Shown here: in pieces, positions 5,872 to 63,937 of the stretch
How positions within the stretch are numbered: position 1 is the stretch's first letter
Layout: each line of letters starts with the position of its first letter
Assembly: GCA_000998135.1 (NCBI GenBank)
Contig: LCCV01000001.1
Span: 8,958 to 72,957 of the forward strand
Length of the DNA: 64,000 nt
Origin: Parcubacteria group bacterium GW2011_GWA2_42_14
GTDB lineage: Bacteria > Patescibacteriota > Minisyncoccia > Sungbacterales > GWA2-42-14
Direction of reading: 5' to 3'
The notes under the pieces: generated by a model
The model's input: the letters and a program-made list of their open reading frames with translations, nothing else
The model's database searches: none
Told to the model about the DNA's origin: nothing
Position numbers and translations under genes: made by a program

Positions 5872-6819
5872 TTAAGCCGTAATTCTAAAAATCTTTACCG
5901 CGTTTTGTTTAACAATTTCCGAAATTTTATCAAATTCCATTCCCTTAATTTCTCCTATTCTTTTTGCTGTTTCAATTATAAATTCGGGCTCATTTCGCTT
6001 GCCGCGATAAGGGGCCGGCGCGACATATGGAGCGTCTGTTTCCAACAAAATTCTATCGGAGGGTATATATTTAACGACTTCATCATAATCACTGGTAAAA
6101 GTGACGACCCCGCCGAAAGAAAAAGAAAACCCTAAATCCATAAGTTTTTTAGCATCATGTTTGGTGCCGGAAAAAAAATGAATTATACCAGGAGGAGAAT
6201 TCAAAATATCTTTCCTGGAATCCAGCATTTTTAAAAGATATTCAAGGGCGCTGCTTCCCGCCGCGCCGGAAAGCGAAGTTCTTCCGGAGCGACAATGAAT
6301 CATTAAGGGTTTTTTTACCACATAGGCCAACTCAATATGGCGCAAAAAAACTTTTTTCTGTTTCCCTTTTGTTTGCGGATTCAAGCGATAAAAATCAAAA
6401 CCACATTCTCCAATAGCCACGACTTTCGGATCCTGCGCCAATTGCAAATAATATCCGTAATCAAAATCCTCCCCTTTACTGGTAAATCCTGCCAGACCGC
6501 TATTCTCTAATTCGCGCGAATTAGAGATAGATTGATTAGGAATATCTGAAATAACAGACGAAGCGGGCGACGCACCTAGTTCTTGTGAGTCATGGTAAGA
6601 TTTTTCAGTATGAATCGGGTGCAATCCAACAGTTGCCCATACCCCCTTAGGGTACTTATTGGCAATTTCAACTGCTTTAGCGGAAGTATCACGCTGTGTG
6701 CCGACATTTATAAGCCACACCCCGGCATCTAAGGCCCGCTGAATTACTGCCTCCCTATCTTTATCAAAAGCGGCAAATTGCGCATGCGTATGAACATCAA
6801 AAAGTTTTGGGCTTGACAT
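5872..6819 (-). CDS. TatD-family metal-dependent hydrolase/DNase.
   Basis: N-terminal LFDVHTHAQF (the TatD HxH motif) and a C-terminal GxxFSFGG.. VVLETDAPY segment. An extra low-complexity insertion (SDIPNQSISNSRELENSG) is present. Confidence 0.75.
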   Translation of the reverse strand: MSSPKLFDVHTHAQFAAFDKDREAVIQRALDAGVWLINVGTQRDTSAKAVEIANKYPKGVWATVGLHPIHTEKSYHDSQELGASPASSVISDIPNQSISNSRELENSGLAGFTSKGEDFDYGYYLQLAQDPKVVAIGECGFDFYRLNPQTKGKQKKVFLRHIELAYVVKKPLMIHCRSGRTSLSGAAGSSALEYLLKMLDSRKDILNSPPGIIHFFSGTKHDAKKLMDLGFSFSFGGVVTFTSDYDEVVKYIPSDRILLETDAPYVAPAPYRGKRNEPEFIIETAKRIGEIKGMEFDKISEIVKQNAVKIFRITA

Positions 6820-6959: not shown

Positions 6960-8456
6960 TTATTTTAGCCGCGGGAATAAATTCCCTCCTTTTTTTATTT
7001 TCAAAATCGAATCATCAACCAATATTTGTTTCTTAATTTTTTCAACTGTTTCCGGCAAAAATGGCGCAAGTAAATTGACTATGGCGCCGATTATATAACT
7101 TACGTTTATTATTATACCACGAAGCTCCTTTTTGTCGCTAATGCCCCACGGCTTTTTATCGTTTATATATTTATCGGCAAAAGAAACAAGCTCCCAAATT
7201 GAAGCTAAGGCCTCATTCAAACGGATTTCTTCAAAGCATGCTTCATATTTTTTGAATGTTTTTTCGGCAATTTCTTTCACACCACTCTCAACGTCCTTCT
7301 GGAAATCAAAATTTATCGGGCTTATTTTTTCTCCAAGAGTCGCAACCCGCGCCACCAAATTTCCAAGGCCATTTGCCAAGTCGCCGTTATAACGGTCTTC
7401 AAATTTTTTGTACGAAAAATCGCCGTCCTCTCCCGAAGGAATTTCACGAAGCAAAAAGTAGCGCACCGAATCCGTTTCGTATTTTTTTACCAATTCTATC
7501 GGATCAATGACGTTGCCAATGGTTTTAGACATTTTTTGGCCTTCAACTGTAACAAAGCCGTGAACAAAAATTGCTTTAGACAAAGAAAGCCCAGCCGACA
7601 AAAGCATTCCCGGCCAAATTGCGGCGTGAAACCGCAAAATATCCTTGCCGATTACGTGCAAATCTGCTGGCCAAAGTTGCTCAAATCCATAATTCCTAAT
7701 TCCTAATTCATAATTCTTCTCTTGGCCGTAGCCGATTGCCGTAATATAATTCGCCAAGGCGTCGCACCAAACATACATAGTATGCTCGGGGTCATTCGGC
7801 ACCGGAATTCCCCACGATAAATCTTTCCGGGGACGCGAAAAACTCACATCCTCCAGTCCGGATTCAATAAGCGATAAAATTTCGTTTTTTCGGGATTCAG
7901 GAATTATTCTTAATTCATTATTCCTGATTCTTAATTCAACTTCTTTGGAATACTTTGAAAGTCGGAAAAAATAATTTTCCTCCTCAATAACTTCCGGCTC
8001 TTTTTGGTGGTCGCGGCATTTGCCTTGAACCAAATCTTTTTCCGTAACAAACGCCTCATGCCCAACGCAATAAAGCCCGCGATACTTTTTCTTATACAAA
8101 TCGCCTGCTTCAAAAAGTTTTAGCCATAATTTTTGCGCTCCTGGCCAATGGCGTTTTTGGTCAGAAGTTCTTATGAAGTCATTCCACGACAAATTAAGAA
8201 CATTTTTAATTTTAAGTTCCCTAAATTTTTCTGAATTCTCATCCACAAAATCTTTCGGGTTTTTTCCCGCCGCTTCCGCGGCTCTTGCGATTTTCGCGCC
8301 GTGTTCATCGGTTCCAGTCAAAAACCAAACATCATCGCCTTTTATACGATGGAAACGGGCCAAAACATCCGCCTGAATTTTTTCCAAAGCATGCCCGATA
8401 TGCGGTTTGGCATTTACATAATCAATTGCTGTTGTAATATAATACTTGCTTGACAT
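6960..8456 (-). CDS. metG: Methionyl-tRNA synthetase.
   Basis: N-terminal ITTAIDYVNAKPHIGHA (HIGH), KMSKT, and an anticodon-binding C-terminus. Start placed at the ATG giving MSSKYY. Confidence 0.95.
   Translation of the reverse strand: MSSKYYITTAIDYVNAKPHIGHALEKIQADVLARFHRIKGDDVWFLTGTDEHGAKIARAAEAAGKNPKDFVDENSEKFRELKIKNVLNLSWNDFIRTSDQKRHWPGAQKLWLKLFEAGDLYKKKYRGLYCVGHEAFVTEKDLVQGKCRDHQKEPEVIEEENYFFRLSKYSKEVELRIRNNELRIIPESRKNEILSLIESGLEDVSFSRPRKDLSWGIPVPNDPEHTMYVWCDALANYITAIGYGQEKNYELGIRNYGFEQLWPADLHVIGKDILRFHAAIWPGMLLSAGLSLSKAIFVHGFVTVEGQKMSKTIGNVIDPIELVKKYETDSVRYFLLREIPSGEDGDFSYKKFEDRYNGDLANGLGNLVARVATLGEKISPINFDFQKDVESGVKEIAEKTFKKYEACFEEIRLNEALASIWELVSFADKYINDKKPWGISDKKELRGIIINVSYIIGAIVNLLAPFLPETVEKIKKQILVDDSILKIKKGGNLFPRLK
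7688..7717 (-). repeat. Repeat family B, AATTCCTAATTCATAATTC, in-frame in metG.
   Basis: Encodes KNYELGIRNYGF. Further copies occur at 7903-7938 in metG (NNELRII), at 4386-4420 in leuS (NNELGIMNYG) and at 27526-27548 inside the tmRNA. Confidence 0.75.
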
Positions 8457-8519: not shown

Positions 8520-9011
8520 ATGCTAAAATTCATCTGGGGGCTCTCCATTTTCACAATTCTCTCACTCTTAACTCTCGCGCTTAATAATCAGGAAAGTATC
8601 AATAAATGGCTTCATGCGCCAAAGCCAGAAGTTCAGAAAATAAAACAGAGCTCGCCCGCTACCGACAAAACCGGACAAAATTCTATCGTTGATAAAATTA
8701 TCAAACAATCCCGGGAATTAAAGGCAAAAAATTTAGAAACGGAAAAACGTATTGGTGATTTTCGAAAGAACGTAGATATTAAATGCACTTTCATGGTAAA
8801 AGCCGAGGATTGCGAAAAGTTTATAGCGATGCTGACCAGTGACGAAGAGGTTATTGATATCTTCAAAAAACTATCAAAAAGCGGGGTTGCTTTATGGATA
8901 TATTACTCATTCGGAACTAGAAATGAAATTTATCTTGACCAGAACGGCAACCTTATAATGACGCAAAAGGCGGATATTTCTAAAATAAGAAAATTTTTAG
9001 GGGTAAAATAG
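8520..9011 (+). CDS. Secreted or membrane-anchored protein, paralogue A.
   Basis: N-terminal signal/TM (MLKFIWGLSIFTILSLLTLA), a PATDKT motif, and a C-terminal KKFLGVK that it shares with the 9806-10294 ORF. Confidence 0.5.
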   Translation: MLKFIWGLSIFTILSLLTLALNNQESINKWLHAPKPEVQKIKQSSPATDKTGQNSIVDKIIKQSRELKAKNLETEKRIGDFRKNVDIKCTFMVKAEDCEKFIAMLTSDEEVIDIFKKLSKSGVALWIYYSFGTRNEIYLDQNGNLIMTQKADISKIRKFLGVK

Positions 9012-9045
9012 GCGCCATTCCGGCGCTCTTTTTTTATTTTCAATA
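9011..9045 (+). terminator. Intrinsic terminator.
   Basis: Stem gcgcc-attcc-ggcgc followed by tctttttttatttt. A byte-identical copy follows paralogue B. Confidence 0.6.
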
Positions 9046-9088
9046 TTTACCGCGCATATCAAAATCCGCCAACAGACGGATTTTGAAA

Positions 9089-9805: not shown

Positions 9806-10294
9806 ATGAACAGAATCAGCGCGATTTTAGCATCCCTTGCCGTAATTCTCGTATTTTCCATGTTTATTTTTCCAAACTTTTTTTTCGGCGATAAAGTCCA
9901 AAAAATTCAAGAAATCAAACAGGGCGCGCCTGCTACCGATAAAACCGAAACGAGCTCCCGGCCGGCCAACCAGGCCCGCCTCAACGAAATTATTCAAATG
10001 GCGGAATCAGCCAAACAAAAAGAAAAAGATTTAAACGCGAAGGTTGACGAATTGGCTAAAGCAGTCAAATGCGCCAATACCCTTGAATCGATTTTTTGCG
10101 ACAATACATTAAGAACCCTAGCTCGTGATAAAAAAGTCGCGGAAAGTCTTATCACGCTTTCTAAATCAATACCCATTGTCATCACCGTACACCTATACCC
10201 TTTTGGCAGCATCTATGTCAGTAGTGACGGTTGGCTCATTATAACGGAGGAACCGGATATTGAAGGAGTCAAAAAATTTTTAGGGGTAAAATAG
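9806..10294 (+). CDS. Secreted or membrane-anchored protein, paralogue B.
   Basis: Signal/TM at the N-terminus, the PATDKT motif and the same KKFLGVK C-terminus, with a duplicated promoter and terminator. Confidence 0.5.
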   Translation: MNRISAILASLAVILVFSMFIFPNFFFGDKVQKIQEIKQGAPATDKTETSSRPANQARLNEIIQMAESAKQKEKDLNAKVDELAKAVKCANTLESIFCDNTLRTLARDKKVAESLITLSKSIPIVITVHLYPFGSIYVSSDGWLIITEEPDIEGVKKFLGVK

Positions 10295-10330
10295 GCGCCA
10301 TTCCGGCGCTCTTTTTTTATTTTCAATATT
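10294..10330 (+). terminator. Intrinsic terminator, an identical copy of the one at 9011-9045.
   Basis: Sequence taggcgccattccggcgctctttttttattttcaatatttacc. Confidence 0.6.
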
Positions 10331-10555
10331 TACCTGCGAGCGCGAACCAAAGGGCAAGGCGCGAGCAGTTGTAAATATTGAAACGAGCACTCAATTTAAA
10401 ATCGTGTATTTCTTGTATCAAAACATTTGCTTTCGCGCGTTTTATTGATAAACTTAATTATTATGTATACTAAGCTCAAATTGAATGCTCGGTGCTCAAT
10501 TTTCTAGCATCTCGGCTTCGCAAGCAAGATTGTTTGCCTCGCTAAGAAAATTAGC

Positions 10556-11083
10556 ATGACTTTAACCACCCACATTTTAATCGCCACCGCGGCCGCCAAG
10601 CCGTTTTTCTCCGTGCATCCGGCGCTGGTTTTTGTTGCGGCCATAGCTTCACATTATCTTGCCGATGCCATTCCTCACTGGGACTGGCATTTGTCATCCG
10701 TTAAAGAAGATTTAAGCGACAAACATGACCACAATCTTATTTTAGAAAAAACCATCAATGTTCGTGATCTTCTTAAAATATCTCTTGATATATTTACGGG
10801 CTCGCTAATTGCTTTTTTAATATTACGGCCCGAACTTAACATAAAAGAGCTAACGCCGTTAGCCCTTTCCATTTTCGGAGGAATTCTTCCCGATATGCTT
10901 CAGCCGGTTTTCTGGGTCTGGAAAGAAAAAAATCCGTTTATGTTTATAAAACGCTTCCATAGTTTCATGCACTCAAAAATTTATTTGGGAAGACATTTTT
11001 GGACCGCAAAAAAATATATTATCATCGGCAAAGTTTCTCAAACAATTATTGCGCTTCTGACAATCTGGCTTATTTATTCATGA
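10556..11083 (+). CDS. Membrane protein, possibly of the DUF457/YdjM-like metal-dependent hydrolase family.
   Basis: Several TM helices and a His-rich N-terminus (THILIA...SHYLADAIPHWDWH). Confidence 0.3.
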   Translation: MTLTTHILIATAAAKPFFSVHPALVFVAAIASHYLADAIPHWDWHLSSVKEDLSDKHDHNLILEKTINVRDLLKISLDIFTGSLIAFLILRPELNIKELTPLALSIFGGILPDMLQPVFWVWKEKNPFMFIKRFHSFMHSKIYLGRHFWTAKKYIIIGKVSQTIIALLTIWLIYS

Positions 11084-11138
11084 ATCATAAAACATGAAAC
11101 ATGAAACTTTTTATGTTACATGCTTCATGTTACATGAA

Positions 11139-12197
11139 TCATGCTGAGTGGACTTCTTGCAGCAGCCCTCTCTTTCTCCTGTCAATATCAATTACGAATT
11201 CAACAAGAACCGAAGCAATGGGTACGGCTAAAAACAGTCCAAGAATTCCTCCAAGTTTGGCTCCAACCAGCAAAGCTACAACCACCACCAAGGGATTCAA
11301 ACCGACCGTTTTTCTCATGACCACCGGCACAATCAAATGGCTTTCCATCTGCTGAATAACGAAATAAACCAGAACCACGATTATCGCCAATATCGGGTCC
11401 TGTAAAAAAGCGGTAAAGGCGGCCGGAGCCGCGGCCATAATCGGGCCAATTACGGGAATTAATTCAAATATAGCCGCCACAAAAGCAAGAAGCAAAGCAT
11501 ATTTAACGCCCAAAAATGACAAAGCAGTAAATACCAATATTCCGATCAAAACCCCGAGGAGAAGTTGGGCCCTTAACCAATGGCCCATTTTTTTTTGGGA
11601 ACGAGTCCAAAGGTCAATCATGTATTCCTCGTACTCAAGCGGGGTTACCAGACGCAAAAAATTTTCAATACCGCTTTCCTGCGTTGCCAGATAAAAAGAA
11701 ACAACAATCAAAATCACCACGGATATAAGCCCGCCAAAAATGGCAGAAAGAATTCCAAAAGCGTTTCCCGTAAGCTGCCCTATCGGAATAGAACCGTTCT
11801 CAATAAAATCTTCAGCTCCGTCAGAAAGATAATCAAAAAACGGCAATCCTTCAAATTCCTTAAGTTCGCTTAAAAATTTGGATTGATAGGCATAATAAAC
11901 TTCCCGAAAAGAATCAAATTCTTCGGCAAGCGTAGGAATCAAAAAATAAAAAATAACGGCAAAAATTAAAAATACCGCAAGATAAATTATAATAACCCCC
12001 GCAATACGCGGGATTTTATATTTTTTAAACCAAAATATGACTGGCTCCATGGCCGAAGCAATAACAACCGCGAATAAGAGGGCGGCCAAAACATCCGAAA
12101 GAATATAGAGCAAAAGCGCCCCGCCAACAACGAGAAAAAATTTTATGAAGACTTTATATGATATATCTATGGGGTGAAGAGGGTTTTTGGTGGGCAT
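11139..12197 (-). CDS. AI-2E family (PerM/UPF0118) transporter.
   Basis: Eight predicted TM helices and the LGLFLAVPIASV motif near the C-terminus. The ORF's first ~19 codons lie in a dispersed repeat, so the start is placed at MPTKNP. Confidence 0.75.
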   Translation of the reverse strand: MPTKNPLHPIDISYKVFIKFFLVVGGALLLYILSDVLAALLFAVVIASAMEPVIFWFKKYKIPRIAGVIIIYLAVFLIFAVIFYFLIPTLAEEFDSFREVYYAYQSKFLSELKEFEGLPFFDYLSDGAEDFIENGSIPIGQLTGNAFGILSAIFGGLISVVILIVVSFYLATQESGIENFLRLVTPLEYEEYMIDLWTRSQKKMGHWLRAQLLLGVLIGILVFTALSFLGVKYALLLAFVAAIFELIPVIGPIMAAAPAAFTAFLQDPILAIIVVLVYFVIQQMESHLIVPVVMRKTVGLNPLVVVVALLVGAKLGGILGLFLAVPIASVLVEFVIDIDRRKRGLLQEVHSA

Positions 12198-12290
12198 GCG
12201 CCATTCGCCAATCAGTCGCGAATTATTTCGCAAATGGTTTGATAAACTCACCATAAATATTCGCGAATAAAATTAGAGATTGATTAGAGA

Positions 12291-17874: not shown

Positions 17875-17950
17875 ATCGCTAATCAATCTCTAATTTTATT
17901 CGCGAATGGTTCGACAAGCTCACCATAAATATTCGCGAATGAATTCGTGT
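17875..17950. repeat. Element of about 80 bp with terminal inverted repeats, one of three copies, sitting immediately upstream of minus-strand gene starts.
   Basis: Sequence cgctaatcaatctctaattttattcgcgaatggttcgacaagctcaccataaatattcgcgaat. Near-identical copies occur at 18497-18570 and 12215-12290. The terminal IR is ctaatcaatctctaattttattcgcgaa / ttcgcgaataaaattagagattgattag. Confidence 0.7.
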
Positions 17951-17961
17951 TTGATTCGTGA

Positions 17962-18495
17962 TTATATACCCATTATATCATACTTTGCCCCAAAATGACT
18001 CGCCACCGCCATTTTAATTGATTCTGGCGTAATGCCCGGAGAAGGAAGAAGGCCAAAAATATGAAGAAATCCCGCGTTAAACTCAAACAATATTTTTTCT
18101 AATCCCGGCCCATTTTGAACATCAACCGTATCTAATCTTTCCAACGTTAAATGCATCAAATCAAAAAGGCGCCCATCGCCCCTTTCTTCAAAAACATTGG
18201 AGTCAGTAAGATTAACAATATAAAAAGCGCATCTCAATTTATTCAAATTGCCTCTTAGGTCAATAAAAAAATCCTTGACTTCGGCTGAAGTAATACGGTA
18301 AAAATTTTTTCCAATGACAAAACTTATGGCCGAGTGAGTCAACGGCTCCAAATGCCCCTTAAGCTTGGCCGCTTCTTTTCTCACTCCCTGCGCCATTACT
18401 TTTATTTTCCCGAAATCCTTGGTCAAAATCGTAATCAACAAATCCGCCTCGCCATAAGGTTCTTTTTTTAAGATGATGCCCTCTGTACTATGCAT
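17962..18495 (-). CDS. recO: DNA repair protein RecO, short form.
   Basis: N-terminal OB-fold signature EGIILKKEPYGEADLLITILTKDFGKIKVMAQGVRK. Confidence 0.6.
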   Translation of the reverse strand: MHSTEGIILKKEPYGEADLLITILTKDFGKIKVMAQGVRKEAAKLKGHLEPLTHSAISFVIGKNFYRITSAEVKDFFIDLRGNLNKLRCAFYIVNLTDSNVFEERGDGRLFDLMHLTLERLDTVDVQNGPGLEKILFEFNAGFLHIFGLLPSPGITPESIKMAVASHFGAKYDIMGI

Positions 18496-18595
18496 ACTCG
18501 CTAATCAATCTCTAATTTTGTTCGCGAATGGTTCGACAAGCTCACCATAAATATTCGCGAAATAATTCGCGATTGATTAGTGATTTTATTATCGC

Positions 18596-18894: not shown

Positions 18895-21800
18895 TTACCA
18901 TCCGTTTTCTACTTTTGTTTTGTTGTTTTGATACTCCCTGAATGATAATTTGTCAATCCCCGCCCAAACTTGCTTGCCTTCAATCTCCAGATCGCACTCG
19001 GCTTTAAAAATCTTTTTTCCGCCGATGTAAAATTCTTTAGCGCCCGCTTCAGCCATAATAAATTTTTTCCATTTTTCCAAAACAATATCTAAATCCGGAG
19101 CGACTTTGAGATTCCTCGCTTCGCTCGGAATGACGCCGAAGGGGTTCGAAATGATACCGGAAGAAAATTGTACCCGGATTTTATCTCTGGGATGAAGTCC
19201 TAAATCTTTACGCATTTCCTGAATGTTTCTGACAATTTCACGCATCATTCCTTCTTCTTTTAATTCCGGCGTAATCACCGTATCAAGTTTCAATTCTTTC
19301 CCAAAGGTGATTTCTTTCACATTCACTTCTTCTTTAATCAATTCTAATAAATCCTTGCGGAGTTGTCGGTTGTTGGTTGTAAGTTGTAAGTTGGCAAGCG
19401 GCTGTCTTACTTTAATCCCCACCTCGGCTCTTAACTTCAGCGCCTCGGCAACAACCTTTCGTACTGTTTCCATGTCTTTGAAAAGTTTCTTATCGCCCTC
19501 AGTCATCCTGAGCCGCAGCGAAAGATCTTTTGAGATTCTTCGCCCCGCTGCGGCTCCGCTCAGAATGACACCCGAAGAGGGCCACTCCGCTAAATGTACG
19601 CTCTCCTCCTCGAGTCGTATTTTTTTTCTCAATTCCCGCCATATCGCATCGGAAAGAAAGGGAATAAACGGCGCTGTTAATTTTGAAAGCTGTACTAATA
19701 TATATGCTGTTGTTAGAGCCGCCTCATTTTTTTCAACAATTGTTTTTGGTTTCTGAAATCTTCGCCTAGAACGTCTCAAATACCAATTGGAAAAATCATT
19801 AAGAGTAAATTCTTCAATTGCCCGCGCCGCCCCGGTAATATCATATTTATCAAGTTTTTTTGTGACTTCAACAGCCAAATTTTCCAATTTTAAAATAATC
19901 CATTGATCAAGGAAGTTTCTTTTTTTTGAATTTTGAATTTTGAATTTGTTTGGGATTTGGGATTTGGGATTTGGGATTTTATCTATGTATGTATCAAAAA
20001 ACACAAAACTGTTCCAAAGCGTTCCTAAAAATCCCCGAAGTTTTACCTGCAAATCTTTCTCATCAAATTTTTTTGGCTCACCCGGGGAATTAATCGTATA
20101 AAAATACCAACGTATGGTATCCGCCCCGTATTTATTAATCATATCCTTGGGGTTAATCACATTGCCCTTGGACTTAGACATTTTCTGTCCGTTCTTATCA
20201 AGCACGTGCCCAAGCGATATAACATTTTTATAAGGCGCGCCCTTTCCAAGAAGCGTTGCTACGGCAAGCAAAGTATAAAACCACCCTCGCGTCTGGTCCA
20301 CCGCCTCTGATATGTAGTCGGCCGGATACAATAATGTTGTTGGTTGTTGGTTGTTGGTTGTTGGTTGTTTTGCGAAAGGCCAATGACCTTGAGCAAATGG
20401 CATAGCGCCCGAATCAAACCATACATCAATTATCTCCGGAACTCTCTTCATTTCTCCCCCGCATTTTTTACAAGAAAAAACAACGGCATCAATATAGGGC
20501 CGGTGGAGATTCACAGCGCCGGTAAAATCCCGCGGCAAATTTTTTAACGGCAAATCAAGCGTTTCGGCAAAAAAAATAAAATCATCTTCACGCTTCCCCA
20601 TATGCTCACGAATCGTTTCTTCATTAGACCAGCCCAAGGCCCCGCTAAACATCATCCAAATCGGATATTCATGGCTTACAATAAGAATAGTTTTTCCGGA
20701 GTGTTTTTGTTCCATATCCGCCATAAAATCCATAATCCTCGCCCTAAGCTCCGAAAGAGTTTCACCGTTAGGGGGGCGTTTCGTAAATTTTTCCAGATGC
20801 GATGAAAAATAACTATGATACATATGGTCAGGCCTTTCGTGAAAATCACCGACATTCACTTCCTGAATCCTTTTGTCAAAATGAACCGGAAGTTCAATAA
20901 TTTTTCCGACAATTTCCGCGGTTTCCCTTGTTCGCAAAACCGGCGAAGAAATAATCAAATCAATACCCCTTTTTTTCAAAAGACCGGCTCTTTTTTCAGC
21001 TTGGACTCTGCCTTTCAGCGTCAAAGGATGTCCGTCAATAGAACCGCAGAGATTTTTAATATTGGAAAGCGACTCGCCGTGACGCATAACCATATATTTA
21101 TTTCTGGCGACACCGCTCCTTTCATGAAGTTCTTCAAGAGAACCGACGGCCTCAATATTTTCACATTTCCCGCACCTCCATACCGGCAAGGGCGTTCCCC
21201 AAAATCTCTCACGAGAAAAAGCCCAATCGCGGACTTCCCGCAAAAATTCACCGAAACGGCCGTCCTTGATATGCTCCGGCATCCAATTTATTTTAAAATT
21301 GCCTGACAATAATTTTTCTTTCAGCACTGTCATTTTTATCCACCAGGCATTTTTTGCAAAATACAAAAGCGGCGTATCGCACCGCCAGCAATGCGGGTAA
21401 TCATGCTCATGCGGTTTTACAAAAAATAGCAGATTCCGCTTCTTCAAATATTCAATAATGTCGCGGTCCGCGGTTTTTACAAACTTTCCTTCGCCGACAA
21501 TTCCTTTTTTAACCGTGCCGTCAACATTTACCGTGTGCAGTATCGGATAATTTAGCTGAACGTCATTCTGAGCCACAGGCGAAGAATCCCCTCCTTGAGA
21601 TCCTTCGCTTCGCTCAGGATGACGATAATACGACTTTACCGCCCGCATATCATCATCGCCAAACGCCGGCGCTATATGCACCATGCCCGTTCCTTCCTCC
21701 GTAGAAACAAAATCTCCTGGTATAACGCTAAACCCCGGAGGACTGCCCAAAAAATATTCTTGAGGAACGCTGAATAACGGTTCATATTCCGTCCCCAGCA

Positions 21801-23111: not shown

Positions 23112-24740
23112 TTACATCTTCTCCGGCTTAGAAATTCCTAAAAGACCTAATATATTATGTAACACAATTTGAGTTGAGCTGACAAGAACAAGGCGCGCGT
23201 TTTGCAATTCTAAATTTTCAGACAAAACATGCTGCTTTTCGTAAAAATTATGAAAAATTTTGGATAGCTCAAGAGCGTATCGCGTAAGGCGTATAACCTG
23301 AAAATCGCCCGCTGTATCTTCAACAACTTCCGGAAACTGCATCAGTTTTTTAATCAGCATCCGTTCCTCGTCCGTATTTAATAATTTAATAATTTGAATT
23401 TTGCTTGCCCGCCATAGCTTTAGCGAAGGCGGGGATTTTCCCAATATACTACTACATCTTACATACGCATACTGGACATAATACACCGGATTCTTCATTG
23501 ACCTTTCTTTGGCCAATTTCATGTCAAAGTCCATGTGGGTATCGGGCGAATGCATCAAAAAGAAAAAACGCGCCGCGTCCGGCCCCACTTCTTTTATCAA
23601 TTCCTCAAGCGTGATAAACTCTCCCCGGCGCTTGGACATTTTCACTTCTTTGCCGTCTTCAATCAGCCGCACCAGCTGGGTAATTATTATTTTTATTTTA
23701 TCTTGGCCGATGCCAAGCGCCTTCAACGCCGCGACCAAGCGGGGGGCGTAGCCATGATGGTCGGCCCCCCAAATATCAATTACTTTATCAAACTTGCGGA
23801 CCTTAAATTTATTCCAATGGTAAGACAGGTCGGGAAGGGCATATGTCGGCTCCCCTGTTTGCCTGACCAAAACACGGTCTTCAGTATCCCCGTATTCTTT
23901 TGCTTTAAGCCAAAGCGCTCCGTCTTTTTCGTAAACCAGGTTTTTTTTCTTAAGTTCTGCTTGTATTTTTTTTACAAGCCCGCTTTTATAAAGAGATTCT
24001 TCCGAAAAAAACTTATTAAATTTAATTTTAAAAATGTTTTCAATATTCACTTGGTTTTCTTTCTGAATTTTTTGCGTTAAAGCAAAACCGACTTCCCCCT
24101 CCATATTTCTCGGATTTTTTGACTTAATTTCTGAAATAATTTTTCTGAATTCCGGGCTTTGAAACTTTTCTTTTACGTATGGCGAAAGATAGCTCATTCC
24201 CCTGCCCAAAGCCGTTTTCCCCAATTCTTTAATTTGCGTGCTGGATTTGGCGTCGTTAATATAATATTCACGGCAAACCTTGGCGCCGAAAAATTCAAGA
24301 ACATTCGCAAGAACATCCCCCAAAAAAGCGCCTCTAGCATTTCCCATGGTAATAGGGCCTGTCGGATTGGCGGAAATGAATTCTATATTTATTGATTGTA
24401 GTTTGTGGATTGTGGTTTGTGGTTTACCATAAATGTTTTTCTTCTTTAAAATCTCTTGAAACTCGCTCTCAAGCGTCTCTTCTGATAATCGGAAATTAAT
24501 AAAACCGGGCGGAGCTGTTTCCGCCTCCCACATTCCACCCCCCACATTCTCTTTAAGAATACCCGCGATTTCCAACGGATTTTTATTCAAAATTTTAGAC
24601 AAAAGCAGGGCGATATTAGCGGAATAATCGCCGTGCGCCGGATTTTCCGGCGCCTCAACCAAAAATTCCGGCATTAAAATATTGCCGAATTTTTCAACAA
24701 CGGCTTTAAGAACGGCTTTTTTGATTTCTGTTCTAATCAT
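23112..24740 (-). CDS. argS: Arginyl-tRNA synthetase.
   Basis: EFISANPTGPITMGNARGA and a C-terminal NPVYYVQYAYVRC segment are standard ArgRS signatures. Confidence 0.9.
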   Translation of the reverse strand: MIRTEIKKAVLKAVVEKFGNILMPEFLVEAPENPAHGDYSANIALLLSKILNKNPLEIAGILKENVGGGMWEAETAPPGFINFRLSEETLESEFQEILKKKNIYGKPQTTIHKLQSINIEFISANPTGPITMGNARGAFLGDVLANVLEFFGAKVCREYYINDAKSSTQIKELGKTALGRGMSYLSPYVKEKFQSPEFRKIISEIKSKNPRNMEGEVGFALTQKIQKENQVNIENIFKIKFNKFFSEESLYKSGLVKKIQAELKKKNLVYEKDGALWLKAKEYGDTEDRVLVRQTGEPTYALPDLSYHWNKFKVRKFDKVIDIWGADHHGYAPRLVAALKALGIGQDKIKIIITQLVRLIEDGKEVKMSKRRGEFITLEELIKEVGPDAARFFFLMHSPDTHMDFDMKLAKERSMKNPVYYVQYAYVRCSSILGKSPPSLKLWRASKIQIIKLLNTDEERMLIKKLMQFPEVVEDTAGDFQVIRLTRYALELSKIFHNFYEKQHVLSENLELQNARLVLVSSTQIVLHNILGLLGISKPEKM

Positions 24741-26579: not shown

Positions 26580-27032
26580 GTGAAAGTTATTGCCACAAAT
26601 AAACGCGCTTATTTTGACTACGAAATCCTGGAAACATACGAAGCGGGATTAGAATTATTCGGCTTTGAGGTAAAATCAATCAAAACCGGGCACGCAAATC
26701 TCGGCGGGTCTTTTATAGTGATTCAAGCTAAAACCGCCGGCTCGCCCGAGGCATGGCTTTTGAACGCCCACATTCCTCCATATCAGCCGAAAAACACTCC
26801 GGCAAGTTTTGACCCCTACCGAACCCGCCGACTGCTTTTACACAAATCAGAAATCCGGGAACTAATTGGCAAATCGGCCCAAAAGGGCTTGACTTTAGTG
26901 CCTCTTCGGGTATATAATAAAGGCGCACGGATAAAAATTGAATTCGGCTTGTCAAGACACAAGAAAAAGGAAGATAAGAGAGAAACGATTAAAGAAAGGG
27001 AAACCAAAAGAGAGATTGATCGATATAAATAA
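26580..27032 (+). CDS. smpB: SsrA-binding protein SmpB.
   Basis: IATNKRAYFDYEILETYEAGLELFGFEVKS...DPYRTRRLLLHKSEI is the SmpB signature. The probable start is a GTG at 26580, 7 nt downstream of a TATAAT at 26567-26572, so the mRNA may be leaderless. Confidence 0.85.
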   Translation: MKVIATNKRAYFDYEILETYEAGLELFGFEVKSIKTGHANLGGSFIVIQAKTAGSPEAWLLNAHIPPYQPKNTPASFDPYRTRRLLLHKSEIRELIGKSAQKGLTLVPLRVYNKGARIKIEFGLSRHKKKEDKRETIKERETKREIDRYK

Positions 27033-27159
27033 AATCCCAAATTCCAATTTCCAAATCTCAAATAAATTCTAAAATCAAATGTTCAAAATTTTTTTTGAAT
27101 TTTGGATTTCGGTAATTCGATATTATTTAGGATTTGATGCTTAGAATTTGGGATTTCAC

Positions 27160-27205
27160 CCCCCGAAATTATTTAATCGCGATTAAATAATTTCGGGGGG
27201 TGACA
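27160..27205. repeat. Perfect 21-bp-arm palindrome whose right arm is the 5' acceptor strand of the tmRNA.
   Basis: Sequence caccccccgaaattatttaatcgc|gattaaataatttcggggggtg. Confidence 0.7.
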
Positions 27206-27653
27206 GGCTTCGACAGGTCATTGAAAGCATTAAAAATCGGGTGGAAGACGTGGAGTAACTTCCTAAAATAATCTTCACAAAAATAAGTGCAAACTTATTG
27301 TCACGAGCAAAAGCAGTTTTTGCGTCAATTTTTGACACAACCGACTCATTTGCTCCAGCTTTTGCCTAACGGTAAAAGCGACTTGTTGCGATAGTAATAT
27401 CGCAACCATCGTCATAACTGGCGCTTGACCGGTTATCAAACGGTGTCATATACTCAAGCTTAATCGATTGATTTTTTCGGGATTAGTCGATGACAAATTT
27501 TCCGAAAGGGATTATGAGTGTTTTGCCTAATTCATAATTCATAATTCCCTGCCCCGAGTTAAATCGAGGGGTTAAACAATAATTCGGCTATCGCCCGTAC
27601 AAATTTTTGATGTAATATGCATCTGGACATGGGTTCGATTCCCATCACTTCCA
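27195..27653 (+). ncRNA. ssrA: tmRNA (ssrA).
   Basis: The 5' end GGGGGUGACAGGCUUCGACAGG matches the tmRNA consensus. The 3' end has a T-arm (auggg-UUCGAUU-cccau) followed by an acceptor strand CACUUCC and a discriminator A, then the sequence continues UCG, so no CCA is encoded. The acceptor stem pairs with a G3.U70 wobble, the Ala identity element. A resume-codon context AAAUAAGUGCAAAC resembles E. coli AAUAGUCGCAAAC. The gene lies immediately downstream of smpB. Confidence 0.8.
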
Positions 27654-27667
27654 TCGAATAAAAATAA

Positions 27668-27706
27668 AACTACCTATTGGGTAGTTTTATTTTTGTGCGA
27701 TTCAAA
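27668..27706 (+). terminator. Terminator downstream of the tmRNA.
   Basis: Stem aaactacc-tatt-ggtagttt followed by tatttttgtg. Confidence 0.6.
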
Positions 27707-27836
27707 TGGAATCTTCCGTTAAACCGCTGAAATTTTGTGTGAATTAGGGTCTTATGTTACTTTTTTGAGACGTATTCGATAATTTTATCCCAATCTAGAT
27801 TATCTTTGATGTAAAAAAGATTAACCACGTCCTTTG

Positions 27837-28284: not shown

Positions 28285-29136
28285 CTAAGCAACAAACCCT
28301 GAAGAAGCAATACCTGAATCATTTATTCTTTTTAATGCAAGTTTACAATAATGTTTATTATTATCTATGCCTATAAATTTTCTGCCGGTCATTTGAGCTA
28401 CAACAGGAAGAGTGCCGCTGCCCATAAATGGGTCAATAATAATATCTCCTTTATTGCTTGTACCGACGACTAGACGATTTATAAGCTCGACTGGTTTTTG
28501 TGAAGGATGTTTGCCATGTCTTTTTTCAGAAATAGAGGTTGATGGTATATCCCACATGTTTCTCATTTGTATACCGCCGTTTATTTCCTTAAGTTTTTTA
28601 TAATTAAAAATCCAGTTTTTTGCATTTTTTTTAGTTTCGTTCACAGCCCAAATTATATGCTCCGTACTTTCGCATAACATTCGCTGAGTAACATTAGGGA
28701 AAGCATTCCGCTTATACCAGATAATAGAATTTATCAATTTGCGATTTAGGTTTTGTAAGATAGTGCCAATTTGATATATGTTGTGATACGAACCGAAAAC
28801 AATAATATTGCCGTTTGGTTTGACAACCCTAGCCACTTCAAAAAGCCAATCTTTAGTGAATGATAAGTAATCGTCATCTGAAAATTTATCCCACCCTGCA
28901 TCGATTTTTGAAAAGTTTTTCTCTTTTGTCCAAACCTCATTAGATTGGAGCCAGCCGATTTTTTTCTTATGATCATAGCCAGAAATATTATAAGGCGGAT
29001 CGGTAATACAGTGGTCAACTGAATGACTCGGAAGCGACCTAAGAATTTTAATGGCATCGCCAAAAACCAAAGAACTTTCTCGGGTAGTGTCAATTTCCTC
29101 TTTTAATGATATGCTTTTCATCGATGAATACTTCAA
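28285..29136 (-). CDS. DNA methyltransferase of the beta class (N6-adenine or N4-cytosine).
   Basis: Motif IV DPPY (HCITDPPYNI) lies N-terminal and motif I FxGSG (DPFMGSGT) C-terminal, the beta-class order. A ParB/SPOUT-free core of about 280 aa. Confidence 0.8.
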   Translation of the reverse strand: MKYSSMKSISLKEEIDTTRESSLVFGDAIKILRSLPSHSVDHCITDPPYNISGYDHKKKIGWLQSNEVWTKEKNFSKIDAGWDKFSDDDYLSFTKDWLFEVARVVKPNGNIIVFGSYHNIYQIGTILQNLNRKLINSIIWYKRNAFPNVTQRMLCESTEHIIWAVNETKKNAKNWIFNYKKLKEINGGIQMRNMWDIPSTSISEKRHGKHPSQKPVELINRLVVGTSNKGDIIIDPFMGSGTLPVVAQMTGRKFIGIDNNKHYCKLALKRINDSGIASSGFVA

Positions 29137-30101
29137 ACGTAGACAATCTTATAAATCAGTTGAAACAACTTCAATCCGATTTCCATGCTACATTCGGCGT
29201 TACCGATATTATAACAAATAGTAAGATATTTGAGATCCTCATTGCCAACTCCCTTGACCATATTCTTATTCCTGGTCATTCAGGATCTCGCGACGCAAAA
29301 GACGCTACGGGCAAAGAATTCGAATATAAACATTATAAGGAAAGTAGCTCAAATCATTCGTGGACTTTTAATGACTTCTCCGACACTACTATTACCAAAC
29401 TAGCCAATACTAAGGCGGTTATTTTTGCACATATACAGGATGCGGATTTGCCGTTTCCAAAATTTGACTGGTATTACGAAGTGTCAGGCCGAGTAATATC
29501 AGATTATTTGGCAAAAGCTACCCGGAAAATAAAAAATAACAGGAAAATGATCAATGTGAGTCCTAAGCAAATTGAAGAACGCATGGGACTCACCAAACAG
29601 ATAGTAAGTCATTCCTCCGGCCGTTATTCTTCTTGGATCAAACGCATTATTGATGTTGCCGGTAAGATTGAAATTGAAGTCGGTACGGTCGGTATTCTCA
29701 CGAGTAATAAATTTTGGGAAGTTTTAGTTGCGCTTAAGTTGGGTCATAGGGTTCAATCCGAACAGGCCAAACATGACGCCACCGATAAAGCCGGCAATAT
29801 GTACGAGTATAAAGTGGCAAAAGGATCAAGTTGGAGTTTCCAAGATATTTCAAATGATGTTTTGCGTAAATATCTTTCCGACCAAAATATTATTTTGGCT
29901 TGTGTCGATAAGGACGATTTTTTGGTTAAGAAAATATATGTTGCCAACACTAAAAAGATTGTTGGCTTGTTAAGAAAAAAACTGCGTGAAAAAAAACGAC
30001 GGTACTCTCTACTGGGAAAGGAAGTTCGGCGAAAACAAATATCACTTACTGTAAAAGATCTAAGAAATATTCGAACAAAACTGATATATTCGGCTGACTA
30101 A
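29106..30101 (+). CDS. Putative restriction endonuclease: a tandem-duplicated PD-(D/E)xK domain on a single chain.
   Basis: Two internally repeated halves each carry D-x(n)-E-Y-K (GSRDAKDATGKEFEYKHYKESSSNHSWTFNDF and EQAKHDATDKAGNMYEYKVAKGSSWSFQDI). The gene is divergently overlapped with one methyltransferase and convergent with the second. Confidence 0.45.
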   Translation: MICFSSMNTSNVDNLINQLKQLQSDFHATFGVTDIITNSKIFEILIANSLDHILIPGHSGSRDAKDATGKEFEYKHYKESSSNHSWTFNDFSDTTITKLANTKAVIFAHIQDADLPFPKFDWYYEVSGRVISDYLAKATRKIKNNRKMINVSPKQIEERMGLTKQIVSHSSGRYSSWIKRIIDVAGKIEIEVGTVGILTSNKFWEVLVALKLGHRVQSEQAKHDATDKAGNMYEYKVAKGSSWSFQDISNDVLRKYLSDQNIILACVDKDDFLVKKIYVANTKKIVGLLRKKLREKKRRYSLLGKEVRRKQISLTVKDLRNIRTKLIYSAD

Positions 30102-31432
30102 AATAATTTTTTAGGTAAATTTTCTATTCTGTCCAATGATTGTTTCCAATACTGTTTTGATATCTCAAAACCAATATAATTTCTTTTCGCTTCGATACAA
30201 GCAACTGCGGTGGTCCCGCTACCCATAAATGGATCGAGAACCACATCCCCCTCTTTTGTGGTTAAGTTGATTAGTTTTTTAATCAACTCGACGGGTTTTT
30301 GTGTTGGGTGTATTCTACTTTTTCCTTTTGGTGCTTGAATTTTGATAATATTATGTTCGTAGGTGCTATTCCATACGGCCCCGGGCCTCTTTCCGATCAC
30401 TACCGCTTCCCACGCATTAAGAAATCTGGACTTTGCGTTTAGGGGAATGGGGTCTGGTTTTTGCCAAACAAGAACATCTATTGCTATAAATCCATTTTTT
30501 TCTAAACCATCAATAAAAAATCCGACATCTTTTTTTGCACAAAAGGTCATCATCCAACCCTTTGTCTTTTTTAACGCAATATCAAACCACTCTTTATTAA
30601 ACGTATCCCATTCACCAAAGTTAAAATTTAATTTTGCTGTCGTTCCGAGTCTTTGGCCCTTACAATTAAGCTCCCTGCTAATACCGTATGGGGGATCTGT
30701 TACTATCAAATCAACAGATTCATTGGGAAATTTTTGTAATTCTGCTACAGCATCTCCGCAAATAATTTTATTCAACGGTAGTTTTGAATATTGTTGTACC
30801 AATATTGCGGGCTTAGATTGATTAATTGGAGTAGTACTTTCATTTCTAATAACATCAACGACTATTCCCTGAATGGTGATCTCACGACCATTTTGTAATA
30901 TAATCGGTTCCATGCCTCTATTCGCCGGTTGCAAACGAATATGCCCACGCTCTTTATAAAATTTCTTTAGAGTTGCTTCGTGATTGTCTATAAGAGCTAC
31001 CACCTTCTGTCCGTTCTCGGCTGTTTCTTGTTGACGGACCAAAACAACATCACCGTCGTTGATATTTTCATCCACCATACTATTTCCAACCACGCGGAGA
31101 GCATAAACACCTGACGCATGAGGAAATTTACTTTTTGGTACAGCAATCATCTCTTTTTCTTGGACTGCTTCAATTGGCTCTCCGGCTGCAATAGTTCCCA
31201 ATAAAGGAATTCTTACTAACTTTTCTGTTTTTGAAACTTCGATGCTTCTTCGTTGATTTTTTTGCTTATCCAAATAACCTTTTGTCTTCAATGCTTCAAC
31301 GTGCTGATGAACAGTCGCAACAGATGACAAATGAAAACCCCTCTTAATCTCCTCCAGGGATGGGGAATAACCATATTTCTTATTGTATCCCTTAATAAAA
31401 TCCAGTATTTGTTTTTGTCTTTTTGTAAACAT
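30098..31432 (-). CDS. Fusion of a LexA-like repressor (HTH plus S24 peptidase) to a DNA methyltransferase.
   Basis: Residues 1-~205 contain a LexA winged HTH (RQKQILDFIKGY...VHQHVEALKTKGYL), the AAG cleavage site (IAAGEPIEA), the S24 catalytic Ser (VVGNSMVD) and Lys (ATLKKF). Residues ~206-444 contain DPPY (LIVTDPPYGI) followed by FxGSG (DPFMGSGT). Confidence 0.8.
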   Translation of the reverse strand: MFTKRQKQILDFIKGYNKKYGYSPSLEEIKRGFHLSSVATVHQHVEALKTKGYLDKQKNQRRSIEVSKTEKLVRIPLLGTIAAGEPIEAVQEKEMIAVPKSKFPHASGVYALRVVGNSMVDENINDGDVVLVRQQETAENGQKVVALIDNHEATLKKFYKERGHIRLQPANRGMEPIILQNGREITIQGIVVDVIRNESTTPINQSKPAILVQQYSKLPLNKIICGDAVAELQKFPNESVDLIVTDPPYGISRELNCKGQRLGTTAKLNFNFGEWDTFNKEWFDIALKKTKGWMMTFCAKKDVGFFIDGLEKNGFIAIDVLVWQKPDPIPLNAKSRFLNAWEAVVIGKRPGAVWNSTYEHNIIKIQAPKGKSRIHPTQKPVELIKKLINLTTKEGDVVLDPFMGSGTTAVACIEAKRNYIGFEISKQYWKQSLDRIENLPKKLF

Positions 31433-35007: not shown

Positions 35008-35059
35008 CCCCATATACCCGCGCAAAACAGTTCTAAAGAATATATCTAATGTGTATTAA

Positions 35060-35097
35060 AAAAGGCCAGCATATATGCTGGCCTTTTTGGTTATCAA
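35060..35097. terminator. Bidirectional intrinsic terminator.
   Basis: Sequence aaaaaaggccagcatatatgctggcctttttgg. Confidence 0.65.
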
Positions 35098-41719: not shown

Positions 41720-41774
41720 TTTTTCATTTAGTTTTCTATAATACCCGCCAAAACACCGGCGGGTTTTTCTTTTT

Positions 41775-41832
41775 ATAAAAACTGTCTTTGTTTTGTTTCA
41801 ATGTATTAATACATTGAAACAAAACAAAAAAC
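41775..41832. repeat. Long perfect palindrome.
   Basis: Sequence tttgttttgtttcaatgtattaa|ttaatacattgaaacaaaacaaa. A second palindrome, ttgtatcaatatactgataca, lies at 41855-41876. Confidence 0.6.
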
Positions 41833-44523: not shown

Positions 44524-44715
44524 TTGATGGCCAAAGGCAAACCTAACAAATCCATTCTAAAGCGAATAAGGTTTTCCAAGGGAGGAAAAATTTCCAAACG
44601 GAAGGCCGGTTTGAATCATTTTAACGCCAAAGCGTCTAGATGCTCCCAGCACCGGAAAAACCAGCCCGCGACTTTTTCAAAAGCGTTTGAGAGAAAAATT
44701 AAACAGATGATATAA
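44524..44715 (+). CDS. rpmI: Ribosomal protein L35.
   Basis: A 63-aa, highly basic protein (KGKPNKSILKRIRFSKGGKISKRKAG) in the conserved infC-rpmI-rplT gene order. Confidence 0.85.
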   Translation: MMAKGKPNKSILKRIRFSKGGKISKRKAGLNHFNAKASRCSQHRKNQPATFSKAFERKIKQMI

Positions 44716-44785
44716 CCGACAACCAACAGCCAACAACCAACAACACAAAAAGTTGTAAGTTGTAAGTTGTAAGTTGTAAGTTGTT

Positions 44786-47073: not shown

Positions 47074-47149
47074 CTTTTAATAACCGTGGATTTACGCGTA
47101 GTTAATAAAATCCGGCTTCAATAGTTCTTTGATAGTTTTTTATTTTTAT

Positions 47150-47185
47150 CCCTACTATACGCTTAAGCGTATAGTAGGGATATTT
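47150..47185. repeat. Perfect 16-bp-arm palindrome.
   Basis: Sequence tccctactatacgc|ttaa|gcgtatagtaggga, sitting between the Nudix and MGMT genes. Confidence 0.6.
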
Positions 47186-58927: not shown

Positions 58928-58965
58928 TTTACTATACCCCTTATTCGCGCGAATAAGGGGTATAG
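58928..58965. repeat. Perfect palindrome.
   Basis: Sequence ctatacccttattcgcgcgaataaggggtatag. Confidence 0.6.
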
Positions 58966-59033
58966 TTTAACGCGCAAAAATTTGGCCGGCAATTAAAAAG
59001 CCGCGGGCAAACGCGGCACTGACTAAAAATTAT

Positions 59034-63837: not shown

Positions 63838-63937
63838 CCCTTTCGTAACCTATAACTTACAACAAACAACGTACAACACATAACATAATAAGTCGTTTGT
63901 TGTTGGTTATCGGTTGTTGGTTGTTAGTTAGGCCTTC

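Follow-up and report, generated by a model that had tools for sequence, protein, structure and literature searches.

Transfer-messenger RNA (tmRNA, encoded by ssrA) and SmpB make up the main ribosome-rescue system of bacteria. To our knowledge almost nothing is known of RNA processing in the uncultivated Patescibacteria, and our search of the literature turned up no paper that deals with tmRNA in this group. In the systems that have been described, tmRNA 5' ends are generated by RNase P (PMC3985003), an enzyme whose kcat/Km is reduced by stable leader structure and by leader pairing near the cleavage site, the effect reaching orders of magnitude when the leader pairs with distal leader sequence or with the 3' RCCA (PMC10731613). 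Overlap between smpB and ssrA has been reported only in Carsonella, where maturation of the tmRNA cuts the smpB mRNA (Hudson, Lau & Williams 2014, PMC4131195), and the arfA mRNA offers an example of a hairpin cleaved by RNase III that ties expression to trans-translation (PMC3985003). Here we describe the smpB-ssrA locus of a groundwater member of the Parcubacteria, related to Sungbacteria, in which the 5' end of the tmRNA gene lies inside a long perfect palindrome. The stretch analyzed is 64,000 nt long (the window; all coordinates are positions within it), and comparison loci from relatives are numbered L001-L167.

Measured against these systems, the window gene resembles the E. coli-type one-piece tmRNA in its tRNA-like domain with a G3.U70 pair, its T-arm GGUUCGAUUCC, a resume codon (GCA) surrounded by A-rich sequence, a pseudoknot region that aligns as a whole to the Rfam model RF00023, an adjacent smpB gene, and an expected 5' maturation by RNase P (PMC3985003). 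It departs from the standard form in its length of 458 nt, an additional G4.U69 wobble, an unencoded CCA end and a tag of 26 residues ending in AFA; it would also differ, as modelled here, in a presumed promoter within smpB and a leader of about 270 nt, nearly all of it predicted to be double-stranded, that masks tmRNA nucleotides 1-8. The putative leader structure is akin to the anti-determinants of RNase P known from pre-tRNA studies, in that the leader pairs at or close to the site of cleavage, with stable structure beside it (PMC10731613), but those involve a few base pairs, whereas in the window a perfect stem of 22-24 bp is predicted to sequester the whole 5' acceptor strand. As in Carsonella (PMC4131195), smpB and ssrA appear to constitute one unit, and the same overlap is found among Parcubacteria; the window itself is the opposite case, its structured spacer retaining the smpB stop codon in a manner that would provide the smpB mRNA with a structured 3' end. 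Finally, the locus shares with RNase III hairpins at mRNA 3' ends (arfA, the stems of rRNA operons) a long perfect duplex bordering two functional RNAs, although RNase III cleavage is conjectural in the window and the duplex there includes part of the downstream mature RNA.

We propose that the palindrome acts as an RNA hairpin in the leader of pre-tmRNA, insulating and capping the smpB mRNA while delaying or gating maturation by RNase P, and we put the probability of this reading at roughly one half. In such an arrangement smpB and ssrA would form one transcription unit, with the palindrome inside a pre-tmRNA 5' leader that is at the same time the 3' untranslated region of smpB. The features on which the proposal turns are the following (TRF, Tandem Repeats Finder).

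26580-27032, + strand: smpB (SsrA-binding protein), GTG start, 150 amino acids (intact open reading frame; Pfam PF01668).
26889-26918, + strand: sigma70-like promoter TTGACT-18-TATAAT in smpB codons 104-113, agreeing with 11 of 12 consensus positions (consensus scan).
27033-27156, + strand: AT-rich, imperfect long hairpin of inverted period-7 arrays (AAATCCC/AAATTCC ... GGGATTT) (RNA fold, TRF).
27156-27203, strand-neutral: 48-bp perfect palindrome, TCACCCCCCGAAATTATTTAATCG followed directly by CGATTAAATAATTTCGGGGGGTGA (24+24), centre TCGCGA, no spacer.
27196-27653, + strand: mature tmRNA (ssrA), 458 nt up to the discriminator A (RF00023 match; compensatory T-stem changes relative to L081).
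27196-27202, + strand: 5' strand of the acceptor stem, GGGGGUG, pairing with CACUUCC at 27646-27652.

The two arms of the palindrome are complementary throughout, and its right arm includes tmRNA nucleotides 1-8; as RNA it would form a 22-bp stem with a 4-nt loop. The earlier note on this DNA had given the string correctly, and rightly as a perfect palindrome, but described it as 44 bp at 27160-27205, with the arms mis-split and the coordinates 3-4 nt too high. A perfect arm of 24 nt has a chance probability of about 1e-10, and the arm is unique in the window, with no matches expected in shuffled sequence. The same palindrome occurs in four independent European Nucleotide Archive assemblies (L161-L164) representing one strain-level population, and is therefore not an assembly artefact. 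The window SmpB is 100% identical to a protein of 'Parcubacteria group bacterium GW2011_GWA2_42_14', and the nearest species-level relatives by this protein are metagenome-assembled genomes of Candidatus Sungbacteria (69-80% identity). The closest relative among the loci is L081, which is 85% identical in SmpB, 80% in smpB DNA and 91% in the tmRNA. This locus keeps the palindrome with arms of 20 bp, in which all 40 bases are identical and the two outermost pairs are missing, while its hairpin loop reads AACA in place of CGCG (3 of 4 positions differ) and the spacer just upstream cannot be aligned with that of the window. Complete identity of the arms, despite the changed loop, the unalignable spacer and smpB genes that agree at 80% of positions, argues for constraint on the stem.

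The presumed promoter lies within the smpB coding region. In a codon-based alignment of 145 unique smpB genes of Parcubacteria, the pattern TTGAC-N19-TAnnnT was present in 143. TTG specifies Leu104 in 143 of these genes, against 20% of the Leu codons at their other positions. For Thr105 the codon is ACT or ACA in 136 genes, and for Tyr112 it is TAT in 138. Codon 113 ends in T in all 145, irrespective of the amino acid encoded (T, N, I, S, A or D). The neighbouring Gly, Pro and Leu codons make use of all synonymous codons. The embedded motif, of the form TTGACW-18-TATAMT, is conserved well beyond what the protein sequence demands and presumably drives ssrA throughout the clade, with a transcription start site that would fall near position 26925. 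A strain variant, L163, carries the consensus TTGACA in place of TTGACT.

The spacing of the two genes points in the same direction. The embedded promoter is situated about 110 nt ahead of the smpB stop codon, and tmRNA was located just downstream of smpB by Rfam scan in 37 of 37 loci checked. Among 108 unique loci, ssrA begins less than 40 nt after smpB in 66; in most relatives it follows by -35 to +20 nt, and in 26 (24%) the smpB stop codon falls within the tmRNA 5' end, by way of GGGGAUGA or GGGGAUGUAA (L006, L008, L087, L090, L092, L094, L095 and L099 are among them). Since gaps below 40 nt and overlaps leave no room for a separate promoter, the embedded one is the obvious candidate for ssrA. 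Overlap of smpB and ssrA, previously thought unique to Carsonella, is common in Parcubacteria, and at such loci RNase P maturation of the tmRNA would create a non-stop smpB mRNA. In the window, where the smpB stop codon occupies 27030-27032, the spacer has expanded to 163 nt and consists wholly of two hairpins. The first (27033-27156) belongs to a dispersed family, D1, with 6 copies, and the second is the palindrome; the spacer of L081 is another inverted heptamer array that is unalignable with the first hairpin. Transcription from the embedded promoter would thus yield a leader whose last 171 nt are two abutting hairpins.

By folding energies that are indicative, being computed without pseudoknots, tertiary contacts or proteins, the palindrome hairpin alone amounts to -33.4 kcal/mol, and its basal 8 bp to -15.3 kcal/mol compared with -7.6 for the isolated acceptor duplex. 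To force the acceptor stem to form takes +10 to +17 kcal/mol, varying with the construct; when a uniform 60-nt leader is used, the penalty is +12.2 for the window, +11.6 for L081 and +9.0 for L097, and lies between 0 and +5.7 kcal/mol in 21 other loci. The window and L081 have the weakest acceptor stems of the loci compared, because U69 gives G4.U69. On these predictions the window lineage is a clear outlier in masking energy, and the suggestion of the earlier note that the palindrome competes with the acceptor stem in the precursor is supported, the palindrome being predicted to win by 10-12 kcal/mol. Leader structure as such is more widespread: in 42 loci with gaps of at least 40 nt, the 50 nt ahead of the tmRNA exceed shuffled controls in structure (mean z -2.8, with z below -2 in 52% of them and the window as the extreme at -10), and hairpins of unrelated sequence that end a few nucleotides from G1, or overlap it, are found in L002, L003, L004, L012, L049, L057, L069, L077, L089 and L097. 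As judged from these models, the clade is marked by stable hairpins that abut the tmRNA 5' end, and strong masking is specific to the window lineage. Rfam searched at a permissive E-value returned for the window leader generic miRNA-precursor hairpin noise, far below gathering scores.

Under the proposed leader hairpin, transcription from within smpB would produce ssrA transcripts that begin upstream and hence need 5' processing by RNase P. The stem of 22-24 bp would take up tmRNA nucleotides 1-8, with an advantage of about 12 kcal/mol over the weak acceptor stem, and so act against RNase P as an anti-determinant, slowing its cut or gating it, and at the same time separating the smpB mRNA from the pre-tmRNA. 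A double-strand-specific step, most plausibly a cut by RNase III, or else a helicase, would precede folding of the tRNA-like domain, and after cleavage the smpB mRNA would be left with a flush, exonuclease-resistant 3' stem. With 22 bp plus a tetraloop, the predicted stem fits the length of RNase III substrates (uninterrupted double-stranded RNA of about 20 bp or more).

Several points weigh against this proposal. Conservation of the palindrome, which the earlier note had singled out as a check, is partial: it is kept in L081 with a changed loop and absent from L167, where SmpB is 86% identical, about as similar as in L081, and the sequence before the tmRNA shows no significant structure (z 0.15). 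Compact smpB-ssrA loci also have no hairpin, and any function of the hairpin must accordingly be non-essential; it appears to be lineage-specific and dispensable for tmRNA function as such. Large masking energies are confined to the window, L081 and L097, so that the overlap with the mature RNA could be incidental, and across the clade the pairing of tmRNA nucleotides 1-8 with the leader does not exceed that in shuffles (4.2 versus 4.5 nt). Nor do the upstream hairpins show strand asymmetry once tmRNA bases are excluded (z -2.62 on the + strand, -2.72 on the - strand), which means that the comparative data cannot tell an RNA structure from a DNA palindrome; an initial asymmetry, in which 38 of 42 loci had the more stable fold on the + strand (p 3e-7), was considered as evidence for RNA and was lost after the tmRNA G-run had been dropped. 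The start site, the joint transcription of the two genes and the cuts by RNase P and RNase III are each something that we infer. Were RNase III to cut alone, moreover, the 5' strand would stay masked in a GC-rich bimolecular duplex of about 10-12 bp, and neither rnc nor rnpB was found within the 64-kb window, the whole genome not having been checked for either.

The spacer is hypervariable and composed of inverted heptamer arrays, which raises the possibility that the palindrome is a by-product of a repeat- and hairpin-prone region and has no selected function, an L081-like quasi-palindrome having been perfected onto the tmRNA 5' sequence by intramolecular template switching and then tolerated. 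Every change that sets the window apart from L081 makes the palindrome longer, two outer pairs being added and the centre being self-complementary. Moreover, of the 11 perfect inverted repeats with arms of at least 11 nt that the window contains, 6 have no loop, far more than the 1/16 expected for a self-complementary 4-nt loop, suggesting a mutational bias that is genome-wide. Both the symmetry of the upstream hairpins between strands and the missing element in L167 also accord with this account. We nevertheless find it doubtful, since the identity of 40 out of 40 arm bases in L081, beside a fully turned-over spacer, argues for purifying selection on the stem, and selection should remove a neutral element that sets about 12 kcal/mol against the folding of an important RNA. 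A site acting at the level of DNA, whether an operator for a dimeric regulator, a promoter or both, would remove the maturation problem altogether: with transcription starting in the G-run at 27196-27199 from the -10-like AATAAT/TAAATAAT, the left arm would never be RNA and nothing would be masked. Perfect two-fold symmetry that includes the centre, an AT-rich core between GC clamps, and the position of AATAAT (27186-27191) 5-8 nt before G27196-27199 would suit such a site, and other palindromes of the window (58931-58966, 47147-47182) lie in promoter regions with TATAGT on both strands. However, the sequence has no -35 element (the best is CCGAAA, 3/6) and no TG extension; a sigma70 promoter within the palindrome was rejected on the consensus scan, which lists none there, and on manual inspection. 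Symmetry would also entail antisense firing into smpB, the hairpins at the same position in relatives have no consistent -10, the centre is not conserved in L081, and the clade-wide promoter is the one inside smpB. All told, a DNA-level role seems unlikely.

Placed as it is behind smpB, a strong GC-clamped stem-loop in the intergenic region might instead be the intrinsic terminator of that gene, ssrA then relying on read-through or on another promoter, and in L004, L005, L012, L033, L077, L110 and L156 the corresponding hairpin is indeed followed by UUUUA or UUUU right before G1. In the window, by contrast, the stem is followed by ACAGGCUUCGAC, in which there is no U-tract, and on that ground an intrinsic terminator was rejected; the terminator scan does not report the palindrome, the true terminators of this genome bear T-runs (27660-27694, 35059-35088, and a stem-plus-T-run at about 41741-41771), and termination here would sever the conserved embedded promoter from ssrA. 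We regard this explanation as very unlikely. Hardly any weight can be given to the notion that a mobile element aimed at the tmRNA gene left the palindrome as a scar or uses it for recombination, whether as a genomic-island att site or by way of the GIY-YIG cassette found in relatives. The tmRNA genes are known hot spots of integration, restriction-modification genes lie downstream of ssrA, the relatives' GIY-YIG open reading frame (ORF) and structured module sit exactly 5' of G1 with a hairpin at the end, and 'CCCGAA' is common to the window left arm and the conserved CGCCCGAAC of that module. But the smpB-ssrA gap of the window has neither a GIY-YIG ORF nor the motif GGGCUAAA...CGCCCGAAC, a relaxed pattern for which gave one match, at 10798, as expected by chance. 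The 3' end of ssrA has no second copy in the 64 kb (within 3 mismatches), for which reason an island att site was rejected, and no integrase is present among the genes checked. Known island integration, furthermore, uses the 3' part of ssrA rather than its 5' end.

Other spacerless perfect palindromes were observed in the window at 41787-41828, 47147-47182, 58931-58966, 35059-35088 and 6504-6527. The second and third of these have TATAGT on both strands and occupy intergenic or promoter-like positions, and that at 35059-35088 resembles a bidirectional terminator.

The junction of smpB and ssrA carries further elements in relatives. One is a unit comprising a small GIY-YIG nuclease ORF (PF01541) and a conserved, structured module of the form GGGCUAAA-stem-CGCCCGAAC-hairpin-UUUUAG, inserted exactly 5' of tmRNA G1. 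It was found in L012 (4450-4854), L004 (4440-4847), L001 (4458-4835), L077 (about 1290-1705), L089 (about 430-751) and L005 (4449-4519). Its occurrence is sporadic across lineages; 7 of 13 pairs in the first stem covary, L012 and L077 carry two tandem copies of the unit, and the ORF is decayed in L004 and absent in L005. Compared with Rfam at a permissive E-value, the module gave no match beyond generic hairpin noise far below gathering scores. The unit looks like a homing cassette aimed at the smpB-ssrA junction. A different conserved leader of two hairpins precedes the tmRNA in L071 (4445-4507), L093 (3078-3137) and L032 (about 4440-4509), consisting of GGGCYUUGCCCG and then YCGAAG-stem-loop-CGAAGRC abutting G1, with compensatory change of GCC/GGC to GUC/GAC; tandem G-A juxtapositions in it suggest an internal loop like a kink-turn.

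The tmRNA gene itself is of the genuine one-piece type, with the defining features of the family at the level of sequence. Rfam places it at 27196-27656 on the + strand (RF00023, 117 bits against a gathering score of 47, E 4.8e-45, full model 1-374), next to smpB as the earlier note had stated, and all helices of the model are aligned, the covariance model and RNAfold both being blind to the pseudoknot pairings PK1-PK4. Two further features lie on its 3' side.

27629-27645, + strand: T-arm, AUGGG-UUCGAUU-CCCAU, canonical (Rfam alignment).
27660-27694, + strand: canonical intrinsic terminator past ssrA, with 15-bp arms, loop TATTG and A-run/T-run flanks.

The tRNA-like domain has a 7-bp acceptor stem with G3.U70, the T-arm and a discriminator A. 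The acceptor pairing described earlier, with wobbles at both G3.U70 and G4.U69, can be read directly from the sequence, as can the absence of an encoded CCA, discriminator A27653 being followed by UCG. Compensatory changes in the T-stem, to GCGAG/CUCGC in L081 and GGCGG/CCGCC in L163, uphold the assignment; in L163, whose SmpB is 100% identical to that of the window, three T-stem base pairs are swapped in fully compensatory fashion (27629-27631, 27643-27645). A weak inverted repeat of 29 nt that joins the 3' acceptor strand to the trailer (27646-27708, 83%) was set aside, as it is mostly the terminator, and the part that extends further is situated past the likely 3' end.

Confirmation by prediction tools, as the earlier note had advised, gave a divided result: the Rfam model matched in full length, and ARAGORN at default settings found no tmRNA in the window. 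Run locally, ARAGORN misses all tmRNAs of at least 439 nt (window, L081, L001, L002, L084) and detects those of 430-436 nt, so that its failure tracks length and is not evidence against the window gene, which is recovered with the same tag peptide at a lowered threshold (-ps80). Annotation pipelines that rely on ARAGORN will call these genomes ssrA-less, and the long tmRNAs of the group are silently missed.

The tag sequence was examined alongside those of about 100 non-redundant tmRNAs of Parcubacteria, the resume position being fixed by an nhmmer profile of the first 95 nt.

27289-27369, + strand: tag reading frame, ANLLSRAKAVFASIFDTTDSFAPAFA followed by TAA (frame, start and end kept in relatives; ARAGORN).

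ARAGORN tag calls equal those based on nhmmer wherever ARAGORN detected the gene. These tags begin with ANLF, ANLL, ANK or AKN, are 10-29 residues long (several of them 24-29), and almost all terminate in PAFA, PALA, PAYA, AFAFA or ALAFA. The window tag shares its ANL... start and ...FAPAFA end with the tags of L081 (ANLLSRARSAVASLFDRVPVFAPAFA), L001 (ANLLSKVRNAVASVFGPDERAFAPALA) and L004 (ANLSTWQKAFAAFNGRIGFAPAFA), and relative to L081 the middle part has diverged in DNA with frame, start and end retained. The previously proposed resume codon GCA 27289 and frame of 26 codons, closing with TAA at 27367-27369, are thus right, frame, start and end being kept in relatives and ARAGORN agreeing at the relaxed threshold, and a shorter tag from the second GCA is ruled out by the conserved N-terminal 'ANL'. 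The tag is not unusual, as had been thought, but typical of its clade, and odd only in relation to Proteobacteria. Mollicutes tags likewise terminate in ...AFA, and those of Mycoplasma and Mesoplasma are similar to the window tag in length and in hydrophobic and aromatic richness, although there is no sequence homology past the C-terminal A-F-A. Tags of Mollicutes are degraded by Lon in organisms that are without ClpXP, that of M. pneumoniae having 27 residues (PMC8403727). By this analogy, Lon-type recognition of the window tag may be viewed as a lead rather than a result; Pfam scans of 17 ORFs of the window detected no RNase III, Lon or Clp and are uninformative on the whole genome.

Repeated material occurs within the mature RNA as well.

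27508-27548, + strand: hairpin of the PK4 region, in which GGGAUUAUGA (27508-27517) pairs with UCAUAAUUCC (27539-27548) (Rfam alignment, inverted repeat, TRF).

The 3' side of this hairpin is a heptamer array, (TAATTCA)2.9, in which TRF detects period 7 at 27528-27547. It corresponds to the copy of a dispersed 'repeat B' that had been noted at 27526-27548; the match is exact, but the segment is a base-paired strand of the PK4 region and 100% identical in L081, rather than a foreign insertion. In L161, whose SmpB is 100% identical to that of the window, both heptamers bear the same A-to-G change (27534, 27541), a concerted change in which A27541G converts a U-A pair to U.G and pairing is kept. 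Relatives of repeat B within the window include copies at 4386 and 7695 and arrays at 4386, 7690 and 7906. The pseudoknot region of the L012 tmRNA holds another heptamer array, and L001 has an ordinary helix, CCAAUGGG...CCCAUUGG, at about the same place, a positional match judged by eye. The 'repeat' is, as these alignments suggest, the lineage's version of a structural helix, built from the same repeat material as the intergenic spacers.

Period-7 tandem arrays are in fact pervasive in the window, with units such as TTTGGGA, ATTTTGA, TAATTCC, AAGTTGT and GTTGTTG, for example at 2536-2590, 2810-2872, 4386-4518, 7690-7938, 11079-11143, 19361-19393, 19924-19979, 20336-20369, 24394-24425, 44714-44784, 51186-51221, 58162-58226 and 63895-63929. 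A composite family, (TTTTGAA)n(TTTGGGA)n, has 6 copies, and other heptamers are found in the same kinds of places in relatives. Longer direct repeats are also present: 8952-9051 and 10235-10334 (100 nt, 84% identity) carry a terminator-like GGCGCCATTCCGGCGCC hairpin, and 17876-17967 and 18498-18589 (92 nt, 92% identity; also 12227-12271) include a 'ATTCGCGAATGGTTCGACAAGCTCACCATAAATATTCGCGAA' unit. Just past ssrA, the region 28285-31432 encodes restriction-modification-like genes, among them an N4/N6 methyltransferase (- strand), a weak PvuII-like endonuclease (+ strand), and an unusual fusion of a LexA DNA-binding domain, an S24 peptidase and an N4/N6 methyltransferase (- strand).

Viewed against what was known, the putative masking leader palindrome would be a variation on the established theme of leader anti-determinants of RNase P, and within the clade there is nothing novel about the tag or the heptamer helix. 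A bolder and rather improbable extension of the leader hairpin would regard the transcript as a 'pro-tmRNA', in which the hairpin is a built-in inhibitor that masks the acceptor end until a double-strand-specific nuclease or a helicase acts, within a hitherto undescribed operon logic common to the clade: with the ssrA promoter inside smpB, RNase P cleavage would either destroy the smpB stop codon, as in 24% of loci, or leave a hairpin-capped mRNA, and maturation of the tmRNA would thereby be coupled to SmpB synthesis by feedback. If the leader hairpin truly gates maturation, the locus would supply the first natural example of a tmRNA produced in masked precursor form, and an extreme natural test of the rules for RNase P anti-determinants. 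The promoter embedded in smpB (143/145), the stop codons within ssrA at a quarter of loci and the GIY-YIG cassette would change the annotation of smpB-ssrA in this radiation, and these three products of the comparative work are directly testable on public metatranscriptomes.

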